Shown: piece by piece, positions 13,235 to 26,327 of the stretch
Layout of the letters: every line of letters starts with the position of its first letter
How positions within the stretch are numbered: position 1 is the first letter of the stretch
From: Candidatus Omnitrophota bacterium
GTDB lineage: Bacteria > Omnitrophota > Gorgyraeia > Duberdicusellales > 4484-171
Direction: 5' to 3'
Length of the DNA: 32,000 nucleotides
Assembly (NCBI GenBank): GCA_021735045.1
Contig: JAIPHU010000005.1
Span: 30,001 to 62,000, forward strand
Notes under the pieces: model-generated
What the model was told of the DNA's origin: nothing
The model's input: only the letters and a program-made list of their open reading frames with translations
Database searches by the model: none
Made by a program: the position numbers and the translations under genes

Positions 13235-14078
13235 TATTTGAAAGCCTCCGAACCATTTTTAAATTTTTTAAATCATCATCTAGTTTTTCCTTGGGAGTTT
13301 CCAAGATAAAAGTTAAATTTTTTAATTTAGAATGATTTAAAATAAGACGAAATCCATCCTTACCAATATTTCCCCCTCCAATATGAAAATGACGATCTAG
13401 CTGTGAGCCTAATTCAACTTGAGTATCATTAAGATGGATTACCTTTAACTTATCTATTCCAACTTCTCGATCAATCTCTGAAATAAGCTCCTGAAGATTC
13501 TTTTTTTCATTTATCTGATAGCCAGCCGCCCAAGCATGAGCTGTATCAAGGCAAACTCCTAAACGATTCTGCATTTTTATTTTATCAAAAATAAATTTAA
13601 AATGAGAAAATTTATACCCTAACCAGCTCCCACTCCCAGCAGTATTTTCAATAAGAACTTTAGTTTTTACGCCTTTTGTTTTTCCTAAAATCAGGTTTAA
13701 GGCTTTAACTATTTTTAAAAGGCCAAGCTTTTCGGTACCCTTTTTATGAGAACCCATATGAGTCACTAAGTAATCTATGCCTAACTTATCAGCCTCTATT
13801 AAATCTTTAGTAAACTCTCTTATGGTTATCTGATGAAAACTTTCTTTGACAGAAGCAAGATTAAGAAGATAAGGTGCATGAACAATAACCGGATCTATCT
13901 TTGATTTTTTTCTTTTTTCTCTAAATATCTCAATATCTTCTGGGCTTAAAGACTTTCTTCTCCATTGCCGAGGGCTGCGAGCAAATATTTGCATAGTATT
14001 GCAACCAAGCTTTTCGGCTCTTTCAATTGATCTATAAATCTTGCCAGCAATTGATACATGAACACCTAATTTTAGCAA
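13212..14078 (-). CDS. nfo: Endonuclease IV (AP endonuclease)
   Basis: 288 aa. (M)LKLGVHVSIAGK... and HLNDT/HxxIGxG motifs are typical of Nfo. TTG start with AAGGA 6 nt upstream. The 3' end overlaps leuS by 23 nt. Confidence 0.9.
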   Translation of the reverse strand: MLKLGVHVSIAGKIYRSIERAEKLGCNTMQIFARSPRQWRRKSLSPEDIEIFREKRKKSKIDPVIVHAPYLLNLASVKESFHQITIREFTKDLIEADKLGIDYLVTHMGSHKKGTEKLGLLKIVKALNLILGKTKGVKTKVLIENTAGSGSWLGYKFSHFKFIFDKIKMQNRLGVCLDTAHAWAAGYQINEKKNLQELISEIDREVGIDKLKVIHLNDTQVELGSQLDRHFHIGGGNIGKDGFRLILNHSKLKNLTFILETPKEKLDDDLKNLKMVRRLSNNGIHKEN

Positions 14079-14121
14079 TTAAAATCCTTAATTTTATGAT
14101 TTTTTAAATTATTTTTAATTA

Positions 14122-14194
14122 TGGAGCCGGGGGGATTTGAACCCCCGACCTCAACACTGCCAGTGTTGCGTGCTCCCAACTGCACCACGGCCCC
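14122..14194 (-). tRNA. tRNA-Ala (anticodon GGC)
   Basis: Manual cloverleaf: GGGGCCG/TG/GTGC..AGCAC/CAACA-CTGGCAG-TGTTG/AGGTC/GGGGG-TTCAAAT-CCCCC/CGGCTCC/A. The G3:U70 identity pair is present. No CCA is encoded. Confidence 0.9.
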
Positions 14195-14353
14195 GTTGAA
14201 AATGCAATTATATAGCGAATACCTTAATTTTCAACGGCACTAAGCCAAATTCCTTGGCGAAGTGCCTTAGTAACCTAAATAAGATACTTCGTCATTTCAT
14301 TCCTCAGTATCAATTCGATTAGAACTTTTTCTTCGAAAAAGCTAAATCTCATT
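14195..14353 (-). ncRNA. Candidate structured RNA, copy 1, directly 5' of tRNA-Ala (unknown family)
   Basis: Helices read on the minus strand:
- P1: AAUGAGA (14353-14347) pairs with UCUUAUU (14284-14278).
- P2: CUUUUUC-GAA-GAAAAAG (14341-14325).
- P3: GAUACU-17 nt-AGUAUC (14311-14283).
- P4: GGCACU..GCCAA-GGAAU-UUGGC..AGUGCC (14266-14236).
- A 9-bp hairpin GUUGAAAAU/AUUUUCAAC (14235-14195) abuts tRNA nt 1.
The second copy at 23034-23190 keeps all helices through compensatory changes. Confidence 0.55.
14207..14234 (-). promoter_or_regulatory. Sigma70-like hexamers just upstream of tRNA-Ala, embedded in the terminal hairpin of the RNA module
   Basis: Minus strand: TTGAAA (14234-14229), 16-nt spacer, TATAAT (14212-14207), 12 nt before tRNA nt 1. 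Confidence 0.45.
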
Positions 14354-14355
14354 GA

Positions 14356-14384
14356 ATATTATCATCTCCCTAAGAAATTGTCAA
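14356..14384 (-). promoter_or_regulatory. Sigma70-type promoter for the structured RNA, copy 1
   Basis: Minus strand: TTGACA (14384-14379), 17-nt spacer, TAATAT (14361-14356). The predicted start falls within or next to the P1 5' strand. Confidence 0.5.
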
Positions 14385-14413
14385 TTGACAAAGATAAATA
14401 GCATTGTTATATT
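14385..14413 (+). promoter_or_regulatory. Sigma70-type promoter for tRNA-Leu and the helicase
   Basis: TTGACA (14385-14390), 17-nt spacer, TATATT (14408-14413). Its -35 abuts the divergent -35, forming the palindrome TGTCAATTGACA. Confidence 0.5.
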
Positions 14414-14454
14414 AATAATTCACGACAAACTAATCATTAACTATAAGTTAACTC

Positions 14455-14540
14455 GCCGGAGTGGCGGAATGGCAGACGCGCGGGATTCAAAATCCCGTCT
14501 TCGCAAGAAGGTAAGGGTTCAAGTCCCTTCTCCGGCACCA
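14455..14540 (+). tRNA. tRNA-Leu (anticodon CAA), CCA encoded
   Basis: Acceptor GCCGGAG/CTCCGGC and anticodon arm CGGGA-TTCAAAA-TCCCG. It has a long variable arm (TCTTCGCAAGAAGGT) and T arm AGGG-TTCAAGT-CCCT, and ends in ACCA. Confidence 0.9.
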
Positions 14541-14588
14541 ATTTAAGCTCTTCTTTTTTAACTTATAAATTCTGTTATAATAAATGCT

Positions 14589-16526
14589 ATGGATCAATTT
14601 CAGTTAGACCCCTTCCAAAAAAAATCTATTCAGCTTACCAAGGACCAAAATTCGGTAATAGTCAGCGCTCCGACCGGATCAGGTAAAACCCTAATCGCCG
14701 AAAGGCTTATTGAAGACTGTATCAAAAAAGAGGAAGGCATAATCTATACTGCACCAATAAAAGCCTTAAGTAACCAGAAATTTCGTGATTTTGGCAAAAA
14801 ATACCCGAATAAAGTGGGAATAGTTACCGGTGATGTCAGTATAAACAGAGATGCTCCCATTTTGATCATGACTACCGAAATTTTTAGAAATGCGATAATG
14901 GTCAACCCGCAAGAATTTAAAAGAATCAACTGGGTAATCTTTGACGAAATACATTACCTTGATGATATCGAACGCGGCACTGTCTGGGAAGAAGCAATAA
15001 TATTACTTCCGCCGAATATGAAAATGTTAGCCCTCAGTGCAACTATTCCTAATTCTAGGGAGTTTTCTGGCTGGCTTAAAAAGGTTCATCGGCATCCAAT
15101 AAAAGTAATAATCGAAAATAAAAGGCCGGTACCCCTCCATTTTTTCTTTCAATGTAATAATGGAATTTTTACAACCTTTAAGAAATTAAAACAGGTGCCT
15201 TCTTTTTCTCCAAGAATCAAACATCGCTCCTACAAGGAAGAATATAGGTCAAGCCGGCCCAATCGGATAAAAACCCTGATCAAATATATTCGTAAAAATA
15301 AAGCTTACCCTTGCATCTATTTTTCTTTCTCGCGCCGCCGCTGCGAAGAGCTCGCCTACGAACTTAGCAGTTTGAGCCTTATCTCTGAAACAGAAAAAGC
15401 TAAAGTAGATGAGTTGTTTGACCAACTAATAGAAAAATATGATACTGCTTCTTCACCTCATATAAACCATTTGAGGCCTATACTAAAAAAAGGGATTGCC
15501 TACCATCATGCCGGATTACTGCCTACTATAAAAGAAGTTATAGAACAACTATTTACAACCGGCCTGATAAAACTTATCTTTACCACAGAAACTTTCGCTC
15601 TTGGCATCAATATGCCAGTAAAAAGTGTTGTTTTTGATTCACTAAGTAAATTTTACGGCAGATACCACCACTACCTAAAAACTCGAGACTTTTATCAGAT
15701 GGCCGGCCGAGCCGGAAGAAGAGGAATAGATAAAGAAGGCTTTGTCTACAGCCGGGTTAACCCCTCTCATATTGATCAAATATCTTTAGAAAATATAATC
15801 TACGGTGGCTACGAGCCAATCAAAAGCCAGCTAAACTCATGCTATGCAACAATCCTTAACCTTTGGGCTCATATGGCTGAAAATATCTATCAAATATATC
15901 CCAAATCTTTTCATTTCTACCAAAGCAAACCCTGGCCGCAAAAAAAGATGCTTGAGAATATAAAAAATAAAGTCCTTCTTTTACAAAAACTTGATTATAT
16001 CGTAGGAAAAGAACTAAGCCCTAAGGCTCAGCTGGCATCAGGAATTTATAGTTTTGAACTAGCAATAGGAGAACTTTTCCAAGAAAACTATCTAGACAAA
16101 CTAAGCCCTAAAGAACTATTTGTGCTAATCGTAGCCTTAGTACATGAACCACGTAAAGGGCAAAGGCGTCCTAAACTGGACAAAAAAACCAAAAAAATAA
16201 AAAGGGAAACAAATAAAATAATTAGAAAAATTCAAAGGATGGAAAGAAGGTATAGGATATATCCTCCCAGTAAAAAGCTTTTTTTTCATTTAACCGAGCC
16301 AGCACAGCTCTGGTTCCAAGGAGCTCAATTTCATAAATTAATTAAAAACTCAAGAATAGACGAGGGCACTATCGTCCGGTATTTTAGAATGGCCCTTCAG
16401 GTATTAAGACAACTGCGCAAGGCAGGCCAAATTAACCAAAAATTAAAAGATAATATCAGCTACTGTATCCAAAAAACAAAAAGAGATGTCATCGATGCCG
16501 AGAACCAGCTTCGGCAGGAAATATAA
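14589..16526 (+). CDS. Ski2/Mtr4/HelY-like superfamily-2 RNA helicase
   Basis: 645 aa. LDPFQ...APTGSGKT (motif I), YTAPIKALSNQKFRDF, MTTEIFRN, DEIH box (FDEIHYLDD..RGTVWEE), LSATIPN and QMAGRAGRRG. The collinear motif set is typical of the Ski2-like family. Confidence 0.8.
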   Translation: MDQFQLDPFQKKSIQLTKDQNSVIVSAPTGSGKTLIAERLIEDCIKKEEGIIYTAPIKALSNQKFRDFGKKYPNKVGIVTGDVSINRDAPILIMTTEIFRNAIMVNPQEFKRINWVIFDEIHYLDDIERGTVWEEAIILLPPNMKMLALSATIPNSREFSGWLKKVHRHPIKVIIENKRPVPLHFFFQCNNGIFTTFKKLKQVPSFSPRIKHRSYKEEYRSSRPNRIKTLIKYIRKNKAYPCIYFSFSRRRCEELAYELSSLSLISETEKAKVDELFDQLIEKYDTASSPHINHLRPILKKGIAYHHAGLLPTIKEVIEQLFTTGLIKLIFTTETFALGINMPVKSVVFDSLSKFYGRYHHYLKTRDFYQMAGRAGRRGIDKEGFVYSRVNPSHIDQISLENIIYGGYEPIKSQLNSCYATILNLWAHMAENIYQIYPKSFHFYQSKPWPQKKMLENIKNKVLLLQKLDYIVGKELSPKAQLASGIYSFELAIGELFQENYLDKLSPKELFVLIVALVHEPRKGQRRPKLDKKTKKIKRETNKIIRKIQRMERRYRIYPPSKKLFFHLTEPAQLWFQGAQFHKLIKNSRIDEGTIVRYFRMALQVLRQLRKAGQINQKLKDNISYCIQKTKRDVIDAENQLRQEI

Positions 16527-22958: not shown

Positions 22959-23034
22959 TCGGGAGAGCGGGATTCGAACCCGCGACCCCTTGCACCCCAT
23001 GCAAGTGCGCTAAGCCAAACTGCGCCACCTCCCG
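22959..23034 (-). tRNA. tRNA-Pro (anticodon GGG)
   Basis: Manual cloverleaf: CGGGAGG/TG/GCGC..GCGC/A/CTTGC-ATGGGGT-GCAAG/GGGTC/GCGGG-TTCGAAT-CCCGC/TCTCCCG/A. It has the C1:G72 pair and G37 typical of tRNA-Pro. No CCA is encoded. Confidence 0.88.
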
Positions 23035-23190
23035 TTGAAAATGCAATTATATAGGGTTATTCTTTCATTTTCAACGGCACTGAACCGACTTCTTCGGCGA
23101 AGTGCCTAAACACCTAAATGAGATACTTCGTCATTTCATTCCTCAGTATTAATTCGACTAATCCCGGCGTTCCGCCGGGAAAGTCTCATT
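23034..23190 (-). ncRNA. Candidate structured RNA, copy 2, directly 5' of tRNA-Pro (unknown family)
   Basis: Same architecture as 14195-14353:
- P1: AAUGAGA (23190-23184) pairs with UCUCAUU (23123-23117).
- P2: CCCGGCG-GAA-CGCCGGG (23179-23163).
- P3: AUACU-17 nt-AGUAU (23149-23123).
- P4: GGCACU..GCCGA-AGAAG-UCGGU..AGUGCC (23106-23076).
- A 9-bp hairpin (23075-23034) whose last C is tRNA-Pro nt 1. Confidence 0.55.
23046..23074 (-). promoter_or_regulatory. Sigma70-like hexamers just upstream of tRNA-Pro
   Basis: Minus strand: TTGAAA (23074-23069), 17-nt spacer, TATAAT (23051-23046). Confidence 0.45.
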
Positions 23191-23192
23191 GA

Positions 23193-23221
23193 ATTCTATC
23201 ATGCTTTATAAGGGCTATCAA
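23193..23221 (-). promoter_or_regulatory. Sigma70-type promoter for the structured RNA, copy 2
   Basis: Minus strand: TTGATA (23221-23216), 17-nt spacer, TAGAAT (23198-23193). It sits at the same position relative to P1 as in copy 1, although the hexamer sequences differ. Confidence 0.5.
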
Positions 23222-23222
23222 G

Positions 23223-23693
23223 TTAAATCGCCTTAGCTGTAAAAGAAAATTGCTTAAGCAACTTACCTTGTGTGTAAATTTTTATTTGATATTGGCCTAA
23301 AGGGTCCCCTTTGCTTAACCCCCATACATTGTAAATAATCCCATCTGCTAAATTAGATGATCTTTTAGTGATTGCTTTCTTTCCGTTTCTACTTATTTTT
23401 GTTGATTTGGTAACTAGTAATTTTTTAGGCTTCTCAGGAAAAACAACAACTTCTTCCCAGGATATATCTTTGTCTATCTCCTCGGTTACAATAATCCAGC
23501 CAAAACCAAGATCATCTTTTAAGGTGATTATTTCTGTCTCTTTAATTTTAGGAATATCGCCTCGATAACCAACTACTAAACCAGATTTTGCTCCCAAAAC
23601 CTTTACCTGATAACCGTTATTAACAGCATATAACCCTAGGCCTAGCAAAATAACAACTGTTATAGTTACTATCATCGGCTTCTTTGATTTCAT
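23223..23693 (-). CDS. Hypothetical membrane-anchored or secreted protein
   Basis: 156-aa ORF with an N-terminal hydrophobic anchor (MIVTITVVILLGLGLYAV). It is tightly packed between gpsA and the RNA promoter. I recognise no family with confidence. Confidence 0.6.
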   Translation of the reverse strand: MKSKKPMIVTITVVILLGLGLYAVNNGYQVKVLGAKSGLVVGYRGDIPKIKETEIITLKDDLGFGWIIVTEEIDKDISWEEVVVFPEKPKKLLVTKSTKISRNGKKAITKRSSNLADGIIYNVWGLSKGDPLGQYQIKIYTQGKLLKQFSFTAKAI

Positions 23694-25023: not shown

Positions 25024-25865
25024 AATTTTTTAATAGCCTGGGGCAAATAGTTAATTAAATCAGAAGCTACTACACAACTTTGAGTTTTTTCTTGAGCGGC
25101 TAAATCTCCGGCTAAGCCATGAAGATGCACCCCTAACTTTGTCGCTTCATAACTATTAATACCTTGAGCGATCAAGCCAGCTATCATCCCACTCAATACA
25201 TCACCGGTTCCTGCAGTAGCCATAGCTGGATTACCAGTATCATTTTCAAAAACCATCTTCCCATTAGTCACTAGAGTTCTGTGCCCTTTAAGAGCAAGGT
25301 TAAGATTATATCTAAGAGCAAAGTTTTTCGCAAGTTCTTTTCTGTTTTCTTTAATTTGCCTAATTTTTTTCTTTACCAGTCGAGAAAACTCTCCTAGATG
25401 AGGAGTTAATACAATGTTCTGATTATTATTTTTCTTTAACACTTTTAAACTTAAAGAAAGAATATTAAGGCCATCAGCATCTATGACCAAAGGTTTATCC
25501 ACTTTTTTAATTATTTTAATTACTAATTTTTGCGTAGCAGGATGCAATCCAGCTCCTGGCCCTAAAACTAACACGCTAACTTTATCTAAACTTCTCTCTA
25601 TTGTTTTAAAGGCTTTAGCCGATAGATGGCCTTTCTTATCCGCCAAAGGAATACTCATTTCCTCGGTTAACTTTATTTCAAATATCGAATGCAAGCTCTC
25701 AGCTACTGCTACTTTTACCAAACCAGCCCCAATACGTAATGCGGCCTGGGCGCAAAGACAAACTGCTCCGGTTAACCCGGGAGAGCCTCCGACTACAAGA
25801 ACTTGCCCATAACTTCCCTTATGGGTTTCAGGTTTTCTTTTGAGCAACTGCATAAGCGACTGCAT
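25014..25865 (-). CDS. nnrD: ADP-dependent NAD(P)H-hydrate dehydratase (YjeF C-terminal type, dehydratase domain only)
   Basis: 283 aa with HKGSYGQVLVVGGSPGLTGA and GTGDVLSGMIAGL motifs. The last 10 nt, including the TAG stop, lie inside tRNA-Thr. Confidence 0.88.
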   Translation of the reverse strand: MQSLMQLLKRKPETHKGSYGQVLVVGGSPGLTGAVCLCAQAALRIGAGLVKVAVAESLHSIFEIKLTEEMSIPLADKKGHLSAKAFKTIERSLDKVSVLVLGPGAGLHPATQKLVIKIIKKVDKPLVIDADGLNILSLSLKVLKKNNNQNIVLTPHLGEFSRLVKKKIRQIKENRKELAKNFALRYNLNLALKGHRTLVTNGKMVFENDTGNPAMATAGTGDVLSGMIAGLIAQGINSYEATKLGVHLHGLAGDLAAQEKTQSCVVASDLINYLPQAIKKLPV

Positions 25866-25881
25866 AATCTTTAATGAGACT

Positions 25882-25954
25882 GTAATTTTTCAAGCTTAAA
25901 ATAAAGAAAAATTACTTAGTCGAACTAATCCTTGACATCTTAGATGTCAAGGAT
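25882..25954 (-). terminator. Three consecutive hairpins downstream of acpS (possible terminator block)
   Basis: A 27-nt perfect palindrome ATCCTTGACATCT-T-AGATGTCAAGGAT (25928-25954) starts 2 nt after the acpS stop. It is followed by TTAGT-CGA-ACTAA (25916-25928) and GTAATTTTT-N16-AAAAATTAC (25882-25915). On the minus strand the second hairpin is followed by GUAAUUUUUCUUUAUUUU. Confidence 0.45.
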
Positions 25955-25955
25955 C

Positions 25956-26327
25956 TTATTTAGGTAATCCCTTTTTTTGAACTTTTTGTGCCACTGCACA
26001 AGCGACTGCATAATCTTCAATATGTGTTATCGAAAGAATCAAATCAGCTTTTGTATCTTTTTTAAAGCTGCAATAAGGTGCTCCATTGGTTCTATTTAAT
26101 ATAATGATATCCCGAAAACTTAAGGGTATGCTTTTTGAAATTGCTTTTATCACTGCTTCCTTAGCTGCAAATCTAGCCGCTAGCCTTTGATAATACATCT
26201 TACCTTGAGAAATCCCTTTTACTTCTTCTGGGTTAAATATTCTTTCGACAAAACTACTGCCCCATTTTTTAATGGCACCCCTAAACTTATCTATCTTGAC
26301 CATATCTATACCAATACCTAAAATCAT
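25956..26327 (-). CDS. acpS: Holo-[acyl-carrier-protein] synthase
   Basis: 123 aa. MILGIGIDMVKIDKF... and the C-terminal SITHIEDYAVA are typical of AcpS. It lies downstream of pdxJ, as in E. coli. Confidence 0.9.
   Translation of the reverse strand: MILGIGIDMVKIDKFRGAIKKWGSSFVERIFNPEEVKGISQGKMYYQRLAARFAAKEAVIKAISKSIPLSFRDIIILNRTNGAPYCSFKKDTKADLILSITHIEDYAVACAVAQKVQKKGLPK

Follow-up and report, generated by a model that had tools for sequence, protein, structure and literature searches.

Correia elements and BIMEs are small, non-coding mosaic repeats or miniature inverted-repeat transposable elements (MITEs) of intergenic regions, built from hairpin modules and processed as RNA. Repeats of this type insert beside genes, can provide an outward promoter, are co-transcribed with their neighbours, and are polymorphic for presence or absence among strains; in addition, Correia elements end in clear terminal inverted repeats and duplicate a fixed TA. 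The Ssn nucleases, a family of ~94-aa GIY-YIG proteins active on single-stranded DNA (ssDNA), were described together with Ssn-related motifs (SRM) (Chenal et al. 2025, PMC11893778). They bind one strand of a hairpin as ssDNA and cut a few nucleotides upstream, and SRM-type hairpins act, on one strand only, as the ssDNA targets of such small nucleases; the Neisseria NTS is CGTCATTCCCGCGMAVGCGGGAATCYRG (PMC11893778). CGTC-tagged REPs, including Neisseria dRS3, are described in the text of Di Nocera et al. (2013, PMC3733652) as hairpins with a CGTC or TGTC tag at the end, a stem of 8-9 bp whose first pairs are A-T, and a loop of 4-5 nt. Here we analyse a stretch of 32,000 nt from Candidatus Omnitrophota bacterium (GCA_021735045.1, contig JAIPHU010000005.1, positions 30,001 to 62,000; hereafter the window), in which a ~190-bp module of hairpins precedes both tRNA-Ala and tRNA-Pro, and we compare this module with the repeats above.

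We favour the view, with a probability of roughly 60%, that the module is a mobile mosaic insertion of hairpin repeats and a spare tRNA promoter, lodged in the leader between the tRNA promoter and the tRNA. It would be made of a) an Omnitrophota repeat of ~85-105 nt, the core, which folds as a three-way junction (helices P1, P2, and P3, with J2/3 as the junction segment) and always starts right after TTYAAT (TTYAAT/GAGAY); b) the inverted arms P3 and P4, which belong to a repeat family found across phyla, with the frame GTCATTC-CUGA..GAAG-AATC as in SRM and CGTC-tagged REPs; and c) a second copy of the tRNA promoter and leader standard in the clade (TTGAAA-16-TATAAT-..TTTTCAAY), the cassette, presumably carried with the insert. 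We read the module as an insertion because it is polymorphic for presence or absence among close relatives and because a third copy, which lacks a tRNA, is surrounded by a duplicated target. Judging from these comparisons of sequence, the insertion is most likely recent.

The duplication upstream of two unrelated tRNAs, as claimed in the original prediction, is real: the minus-strand regions 14180-14420 and 23020-23260 align with a mean column identity of 83% over ~240 nt. Their differences are concentrated in three places, namely P2, the P4 inner stem, and the spacer within the last hairpin; P2 is wholly exchanged between the two copies (AGCUUUUUC/GAAAAAGUU vs CCCGGCG/CGCCGGG). Copy 2 is identical in L106 (GCA_021735365.1; L-numbers denote stretches from other assemblies), an independent assembly of the same organism. 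This assembly is interrupted precisely at the copy-1 module and a second time at the tRNA cluster, the behaviour that repeats would be expected to cause, and its contig ends at the divergent promoter, so that the copy-1 junction is backed by the window assembly alone.

We compared the window with syntenic contigs from Omnitrophota relatives whose helicase is 68-92% identical. In relatives where this identity is 83-92%, the orthologous tRNA-Ala loci lack the module and have a leader of 11-66 nt between promoter and tRNA: L094, L096, L097, L101, and L102 show the same TTGACA-17-GATAATAT promoter, then a leader of 11-26 nt, and then the tRNA, and L098 has an unrelated insert. The promoter-like site ahead of the module (TTGACA-17-TAATAT) had been taken as the module's own; the site is there, but the relatives have the same promoter without the module, and it is therefore the ancestral tRNA-Ala promoter. 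The tRNA-Pro locus is polymorphic among relatives, which show the full module, a variant devoid of P3, or a 36-nt leader. In L096 and L100, the same upstream promoter is combined with the 36-nt leader, of which only the first ~15 nt are common with the module, and L094 has the cassette and a P4 with covarying GGCGCU..AGCGCC in the variant without P3. Other combinations of the parts were observed as well: in L096 the spacer separating tRNA-Tyr from tRNA-Gly, 1 nt long in the window, holds P4, the cassette, and a variant of the left arm, and the cassette occurs without P1-P3 in both L092 and L096.

The tRNA loci of these genomes show further rearrangements. Just upstream of the tRNA-Pro variant, L094 (18560-18720, minus strand) has two ordinary palindromic units (GTCATCCTAAAGCGAAGCGAAGGATCTC.. 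and GTCATTCTGAACGAAGTGAAGAATCTCTGTTTGGTTTGAGATTC..CTCAGAATGAC), and a palindromic-unit centre there, CUCUGUUUGGUU, is nearly as in the Clostridia copies described below. Between tRNA-Ala and tRNA-Leu, L096 (5355-5618), L097 (9352-9740), and L098 (9423-9866) have one to three tandem units of ~125 nt, each comprising part of the 5' end of tRNA-Leu (..cgccgccactccggc) as well as a small hairpin, which is another case of a duplicated tRNA terminus. The spacers of the Thr-Tyr-Gly tRNA cluster, 7 and 1 nt long in the window, hold AT-rich inserts of 129-182 nt in L094 (20385-20980) and L100 (10263-10740); these spacers turn over quickly. A divergent tRNA-Leu promoter was found beside the tRNA-Ala site by consensus scan, and the palindrome TTGTCAATTGACAA (14378-14391), which provides a TTGACA -35 box on both strands and serves the divergent tRNA-Leu and tRNA-Ala promoters, is kept in every relative examined.

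Searched with a covariance model of P1-P2-J2/3-P3, the window yields exactly three copies, one more than originally counted (Table 1). The third, on the opposite strand between acpS and nnrD, stands without a tRNA. Its P1, J2/3, and P1' are as in the tRNA-linked copies, P2 has a new sequence, and P3, unchanged in length, is an ordinary hairpin of 12 bp, all of them Watson-Crick; P4 and the cassette are missing. In relatives acpS and nnrD overlap and have no insert. Here, the insertion is flanked by direct repeats (25847-25875 and 25993-26021, ACTGCAYAAGCGACTGCATAATCTTYAAT), with ~29-41 nt of target duplicated, and as a result of this duplication both overlapping open reading frames (ORFs) stay intact. 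The C-terminal tail of the acpS product is altered by the insertion (..AQKVQKKGLPK in place of ..AQKKT). Elsewhere, core copies precede tRNA-Gly in L072, where the promoter cassette is duplicated, and in L091, where tRNA nucleotides 1-16 are duplicated; they precede tRNA-Ile in L092, with the 5' end cut and with an additional unit made of the cassette only; and one stands in the 5' untranslated region (UTR) of pyrE in another genome (L065). The left junction is TTYAAT/GAGAY in all six copies with an intact 5' end. A pairing of J2/3 with the TTYAAT target was considered and rejected, given that the two do not covary. The empty orthologous loci, the cores without tRNA at acpS/nnrD and pyrE, and the membership of P3 and P4 in a cross-phyla repeat family all speak against a conserved 5' module reserved for tRNAs.

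Table 1. Positions of the tRNA genes and of the parts of the three copies in the window, with the source of each assignment.
Feature	Position	Strand	Source
tRNA-Ala(GGC)	14122-14194	-	ARAGORN and Rfam
Copy 1, tRNA-proximal promoter cassette within the 9-bp hairpin GUUGAAAAU..AUUUUCAAC	14195..14235	-	
Copy 1, cassette promoter TTGAAA-16-TATAAT, matching 11/12 positions (-35 at 14234-14229, -10 ending at 14207)	14234..14207	-	consensus scan
Copy 1, P4, bipartite hairpin GGCACU..AGUGCC	14236..14266	-	regex matches on both strands
Copy 1, three-way-junction core (left boundary TTCAAT/GAGA)	14274..14356	-	R2 covariance model, 96.9 bits
Copy 1, P1	14353-14348 with 14283-14278	-	
Copy 1, P2	14343-14323	-	
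Copy 1, J2/3	14322-14311	-	
Copy 1, P3	14310-14284	-	
Copy 1, 21-mer CUGAGGAAUGAAAUGACGAAG at the tip of P3, hairpin with two tandem G.A pairs	14287..14307	-	
Copy 1, upstream promoter-like site TTGACA-17-TAATAT with TG extension	14384..14356	-	consensus scan
tRNA-Pro(GGG)	22959-23034	-	ARAGORN and Rfam
Copy 2, P4 (23106-23076) and promoter cassette/hairpin (23075-23035)	23035..23106	-	
Copy 2, three-way-junction core (21-mer at 23146-23126)	23113..23193	-	R2, 98 bits
Copy 2, upstream promoter-like site TTGATA-17-TAGAAT	23193..23221	-	sequence
Copy 3, 146-nt insertion relative to relatives	25847..25992	+	alignment with L094 and L100, and translations
Copy 3, core between acpS and nnrD, without tRNA	25870-25964	+	R2, 81 bits

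The helices of the original prediction are real. Both tRNA-linked copies fold better than all 200 of their shuffles (z = -4.0 and -4.7); over seven copies of the core, 80.5% of the cells are paired vs 65% in shuffles, and 12 pairs are changed on both sides, which none of 500 shuffles attains; the helices are upheld by compensatory changes. P2 covaries at all eight of its pairs. P1 is nearly invariant and thus contributes little evidence of covariation. Several details of the fold required revision. The predicted P1, AAUGAGA/UCUUAUU, is a helix, but it shares 2 nt with GAUAC/GUAUC, and this leaves a P1 of 6 bp stacked directly on P3. The supposed 17-nt loop of P3 is itself a structured hairpin whose variants covary; its tip pairs are C-G, U-A, G.A, A.G, G-C, G.A, A.G, A-U, and U-A, and a GAA triloop closes it. 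Covariation among copies is also seen in the inner stem of P4 and, in L072, L091, and L092, at pairs 2 and 9 of the 9-bp hairpin. This hairpin does abut the tRNA, as had been noted, but in copy 2 its last base is nucleotide 1 of tRNA-Pro, and it encloses the second promoter.

Read on the plus strand, P4 is an arm, GGCA-CTGAACC..GGCGAAG-TGCC, which is the inverted partner of P3, and a hidden Markov model of the module aligns whole palindromic (class-A) units of the repeat family to the stretch from P3 to P4. The complementarity of CGAAGU and ACUUCG, from which a switch between alternative pairings had been proposed, is real and arises because P3 and P4 are the inverted arms of one palindromic repeat unit; the apparent switch reflects the two alternative folds open to any inverted repeat dimer. 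Two negative claims stand. The consensus scan found no terminator-like site anywhere in 14050-14600, and hence none ahead of tRNA-Ala, and in a search of the whole window with Rfam 15 only tRNAs reach the gathering score, with nothing credible over either tRNA-linked module at E up to 10.

The tip of P3 links the module to repeats of many other genomes. The exact 21-mer CTGAGGAATGAAATGACGAAG occurs 92 times in 90 stretches of a species-representative genome collection, often several times per genome, and its hosts include Clostridia, Synergistota, Ignavibacteria, Chloroflexi, Elusimicrobia, Armatimonadota, Planctomycetota, Verrucomicrobiota, several lineages of the candidate phyla radiation (CPR), Omnitrophota, and one metagenome-assembled genome (MAG) of Micrarchaeota. 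It has no exact match in viral contigs, no real match to the whole palindromic unit turned up in plasmids or phages, and a metagenome scan with a pattern specific to the module returned two loci only. Among near-variants from these loci, pairs 5-17, 8-14, and 9-13 change in a compensatory way, and G3.A19/A4.G18 and G6.A16/A7.G15 are fixed; the consensus, CUGA-S-GA-RY-GNA-RY-GA-S-GAAG, is a triloop hairpin containing two tandem G.A pairs. Around 68 of the 92 matches are flanked by GTCATY..RATC, and 65 are followed, after a variable centre, by an inverted right arm (..GATTCTTCGCTACGCTCAGAATGAC). The usual arm of the family is GTCATTC-TGAGCGAAGCGAAG-AATCTC, with the frame of the Neisseria NTS. 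These palindromic units are intergenic, and a position between divergent genes is rare (8 of 59); of the units with a gene end less than 60 nt upstream, 19 are in sense to that gene and 7 are not. Non-Watson-Crick pairs of the outer stem are mostly G.U on the motif strand (54, vs 10 A.C). The remaining ~24 matches have other flanks, complementary to each other. Of these, 12 have a tRNA or tmRNA gene within 150 nt, and the strand of the motif and of the gene is nearly always the same; in L046 and L074, tRNA-Val begins with the final G of the motif.

Other identities of the 21-mer were examined and discarded. A hammerhead ribozyme, brought to mind by CUGAGGA..GA, would require GAA where the motif has GAC, the strands of stems I and III are absent, and no hammerhead model matches at E up to 10. 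Readings as a K-turn, a box C/D motif, or a minimal ORF (AUG AAA UGA) fail both the sequence rules and the pattern of covariation, and a pairing with the upstream GUCAUU is rejected because the variants are compensatory solely in the fold with two tandem G.A pairs. Rfam gives no match on the elements themselves in the class-A palindromic or class-B loci, and the sole notable neighbour is a Roizmanbacteria glmS ribozyme (L007, 1933-2155; 41 bits vs a gathering score of 37), which has a 21-mer arm at its 5' edge and the matching right arm within a 90-nt insertion of the ribozyme.

Some individual loci deserve mention. In L031, L046, L062, and L082 (CPR and 'Gammaproteobacteria' MAGs), a motif insert lies between a tRNA and a direct repeat of 16-21 nt, the latter being a copy of the T-arm and 3' end of that tRNA; the insert occurs twice in tandem in L031, and GUUUAY precedes the CUGA hairpin in these lineages. 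The Micrarchaeota MAG (L043, 6600-6780) has tandem units of ~70 nt, GATCTTGAGTT-CTGA..GAAG-AACTTGAGAG, of which only the first contains the exact 21-mer. The hairpin ends 10-14 nt ahead of a start codon in L033, L040, L065, L030, and L029, the genes behind it encoding a response regulator, a stress protein, PyrE, and GIY-YIG proteins. With this spacing, the 3' strand GAAGG/GGAG may double as a ribosome-binding site.

How close is this family to the published ones? Like NTS and SRM, it consists of multi-copy hairpin repeats present over many phyla, with a defined orientation and frequent inverted pairs; its palindromic class has the frame (N)GTCATTC-stem-loop-stem-GAATC-Y; its outer stem is under strand-specific constraint; and its arms flank genes for single-domain GIY-YIG proteins of ~90-95 aa. 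ORFs homologous to GIY-YIG proteins (~80-100 aa; stop-to-stop frames of 78-179 aa) share a locus of ≤8 kb with the motif in 7 of the 90 loci, in several of these directly beside it and, in L030, between the left and the right arm. The Pfam GIY-YIG domain was confirmed in all three neighbour proteins tested; NCBIfam and PDB provide no name for these neighbours beyond the domain, and a large protein search names them only "GIY-YIG nuclease family protein". In L069 (1191-3400), four GIY-YIG paralogues are interleaved with tRNA genes, and one of these ORFs ends in the 21-mer, which abuts a truncated 5' half of tRNA-Gly followed by an intact tRNA-Gly.

The family also differs from the published ones. 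Its stem has tandem G.A pairs (CUGA..GAAG), unlike that of NTS (CCCGC..GCGGG), and the published SRM search pattern, HGTCWYN(0-2)YYVSBRHN(0-5)WNVSBRGN(0-2)RNCYNB, which recognises the NTS used as a control, has no match among 149 related arms in 870 kb, and it misses the typical arm and the 21-mer arm as well as the P3 of the module. The pattern fails because the tandem G.A pairs replace C-G pairs, and for this reason we take the tandem-G.A arms as a divergent subfamily and only a candidate member of SRM. The P3 of the module departs further from SRM in that it has no GTC tag and reads GAUA..UAUC, while keeping the A-U closing pairs and the C after the stem. By the text description of CGTC-tagged REPs, the family resembles them in its NGTC tag and in its ATTCTGAG/CTCAGAAT stem starting with A-T pairs, in its head-to-head dimers able to fold into larger structures, in its location, mostly downstream of ORFs and between tandem or convergent genes, and in its occurrence in several phyla (including Micavibrio for the REPs) without a known dedicated transposase. 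The head-to-head dimers found mainly downstream of ORFs, which that text gives as a mark of REPs, are thus also a property of the palindromic family. It differs from them in its unit, a palindrome of 85-120 nt that has internal loops and whose centre varies, where the REPs have loops of 4-5 nt. Literature searches with the sequence strings of the element returned nothing relevant, and it was dRS3-type strings that led to the Ssn paper.

As for transposable elements, the module is multi-copy and non-coding (three copies in 32 kb) and has empty sites in relatives at tRNA-Ala and acpS/nnrD, as a MITE does. It differs from Correia elements in its weak terminal inverted repeats, its TTYAAT left junction, and its target duplications of 16 to ~41 nt. 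A classical DDE MITE does not fit: the ends GAGACTTAGCC and GGCTCAGTGCC agree at ~8 of 11 positions and in some copies only, and the target duplications are not of fixed length (16, ~36, and ~29-41 nt). A non-autonomous element of the IS200/IS605 type would fit the TTYAAT junction and the hairpins; it is rejected on the long duplications and the absence of tnpA/tnpB from the loci examined. An integrase-type attachment site is rejected because the duplicated targets differ between sites. The mode of spread fits none of the element families tested. Illegitimate recombination or template switching fits better than a classical transposase, given the TTYAAT microhomology and the variable target duplication.

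Several observations weigh against the module being a mobile insertion. No transposase or defined mechanism of transposition was found, and target duplications of such long and variable length are unusual. The polarity of gain vs loss rests on parsimony over a handful of genomes. The link with SRM is incomplete, both for P3, which has no GTC tag, and for the 149 arms that escape the published pattern, and a GIY-YIG gene is absent from the window and from the Omnitrophota loci examined. Some features of the core are those of a selected RNA: the sequence of P2 differs in every copy and is yet always paired, next to a near-invariant P1 and J2/3; of the six copies whose 5' end is intact, five begin 0-12 nt past a -10-like hexamer, in sense orientation; and the core of L065 lies in the 5' UTR of pyrE, where P1 covaries (AAUGAAG/CUUAAUU). 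P1-P2-P3 could be a functional RNA domain of transcript 5' ends, a leader or a small RNA (sRNA) freed by RNase P or by termination, which spread by duplication and took up a repeat-type hairpin as P3. The tRNA-linked copies would then give a 5' fragment of ~160 nt, and copy 3 an RNA of ~105 nt ending at a U tract, which agrees with the presence of CCCUUUUUUU after this copy. The covariation of P2 and P3, the conservation of the junction UAGYCGAAUU, the G.U pairs compatible with the sense strand only, and the position of the motif 13-14 nt before the start codon in L033, L040, and L065 all speak for such a domain. We nevertheless find it doubtful, since the core is missing from the orthologous sites of close relatives, what lies downstream is of unrelated kinds (tRNAs of four specificities, pyrE, and an operon junction in which the core is antisense), the near-invariant P1 says little, and ssDNA hairpins recognised on one strand would produce the same covariation and the same G.T asymmetry. 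We give low odds to the more specific proposition that P1-P2-P3 is an undescribed 5'-end RNA domain of Omnitrophota and their neighbours into which the tandem-G.A hairpin was taken up, and which, cut from tRNA precursors by RNase P or terminating by itself as in copy 3, yields a stable sRNA or a cis-acting leader. Judged on sequence, the module would resemble spacer-derived sRNAs such as 3'ETS-leuZ in being co-transcribed with a tRNA and freed by tRNA-processing nucleases; it differs from 3'ETS-leuZ in lying 5' of the tRNA, in not being conserved at the locus, and in occurring also away from tRNAs. A riboswitch or cis-acting leader, including a T-box, is rejected, for the module is absent at orthologous loci, precedes unrelated genes, and has neither a terminator nor an Rfam match.

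Two other explanations concern the tRNA loci themselves. Tandem promoters combined with operator-like inverted repeats bound by a dimeric factor (GGCACT..AGTGCC and GTTGAAAAT..ATTTTCAAC) could regulate the tRNAs at the level of DNA: there are indeed two strong promoter-like sites in tandem, the inverted repeats flank or overlap the -35 and start regions, and the cassette recurs upstream of several tRNAs. This is quite unlikely, because the compensatory changes in the inner stem of P4 and at pairs 2 and 9 of the 9-bp hairpin preserve pairing and not a recognition sequence, because the G.U pairs are A.C mismatches on the opposite strand, and because copy 3 and L065 have neither tRNA nor cassette. 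It is very improbable that the similarity arose by chance or that a repeat was joined to the tRNA-Ala locus by the assembly. The latter idea draws on the confirmation of the copy-1 junction by the window alone and on the end of the L106 contig beside copy 1, yet the similarity is far above chance, the P2 and the P4 inner stem of copy 1 are its own, which makes it a distinct copy, copy 2 is the same in the two assemblies, and homologous copies are found in L072, L091, and L092.

If the module is indeed a mosaic insertion, its helices would be kept because the repeat family needs them and not for a role specific to tRNAs, and the constraint on folding in this family plausibly acts on a single DNA strand. 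The ancestral promoter would now transcribe the insert as a long 5' leader, which RNase P plausibly removes, and the proximal promoter would still yield normal precursors with a short leader; with normal precursors from this promoter, the net effect on the tRNA is probably small.

The analysis carries a caution for the discovery of non-coding RNA: covariation together with a promoter cannot tell a functional RNA from a DNA repeat selected on a single strand. Should the functional RNA explanation be the true one, the module would represent a new class of leaders or sRNAs, and, for the proposed 5'-end RNA domain of Omnitrophota and their neighbours, the spread to new promoters would be a way to gain new sites of expression. 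If, as we favour, the module is a mobile mosaic of repeats, then hairpin repeats of the Ssn/REP type reach far beyond the published search pattern, with a tandem-G.A subfamily in Clostridia, Synergistota, Ignavibacteria, Chloroflexi, CPR, Omnitrophota, and a MAG of DPANN archaea. These repeats would accumulate where tRNA and tmRNA genes begin or end, in many cases together with duplications of the tRNA termini, and in Omnitrophota they would, together with the three-way-junction element and a spare promoter, remodel the leaders of tRNAs within close lineages, which bears on how far loci of stable RNAs tolerate insertions.

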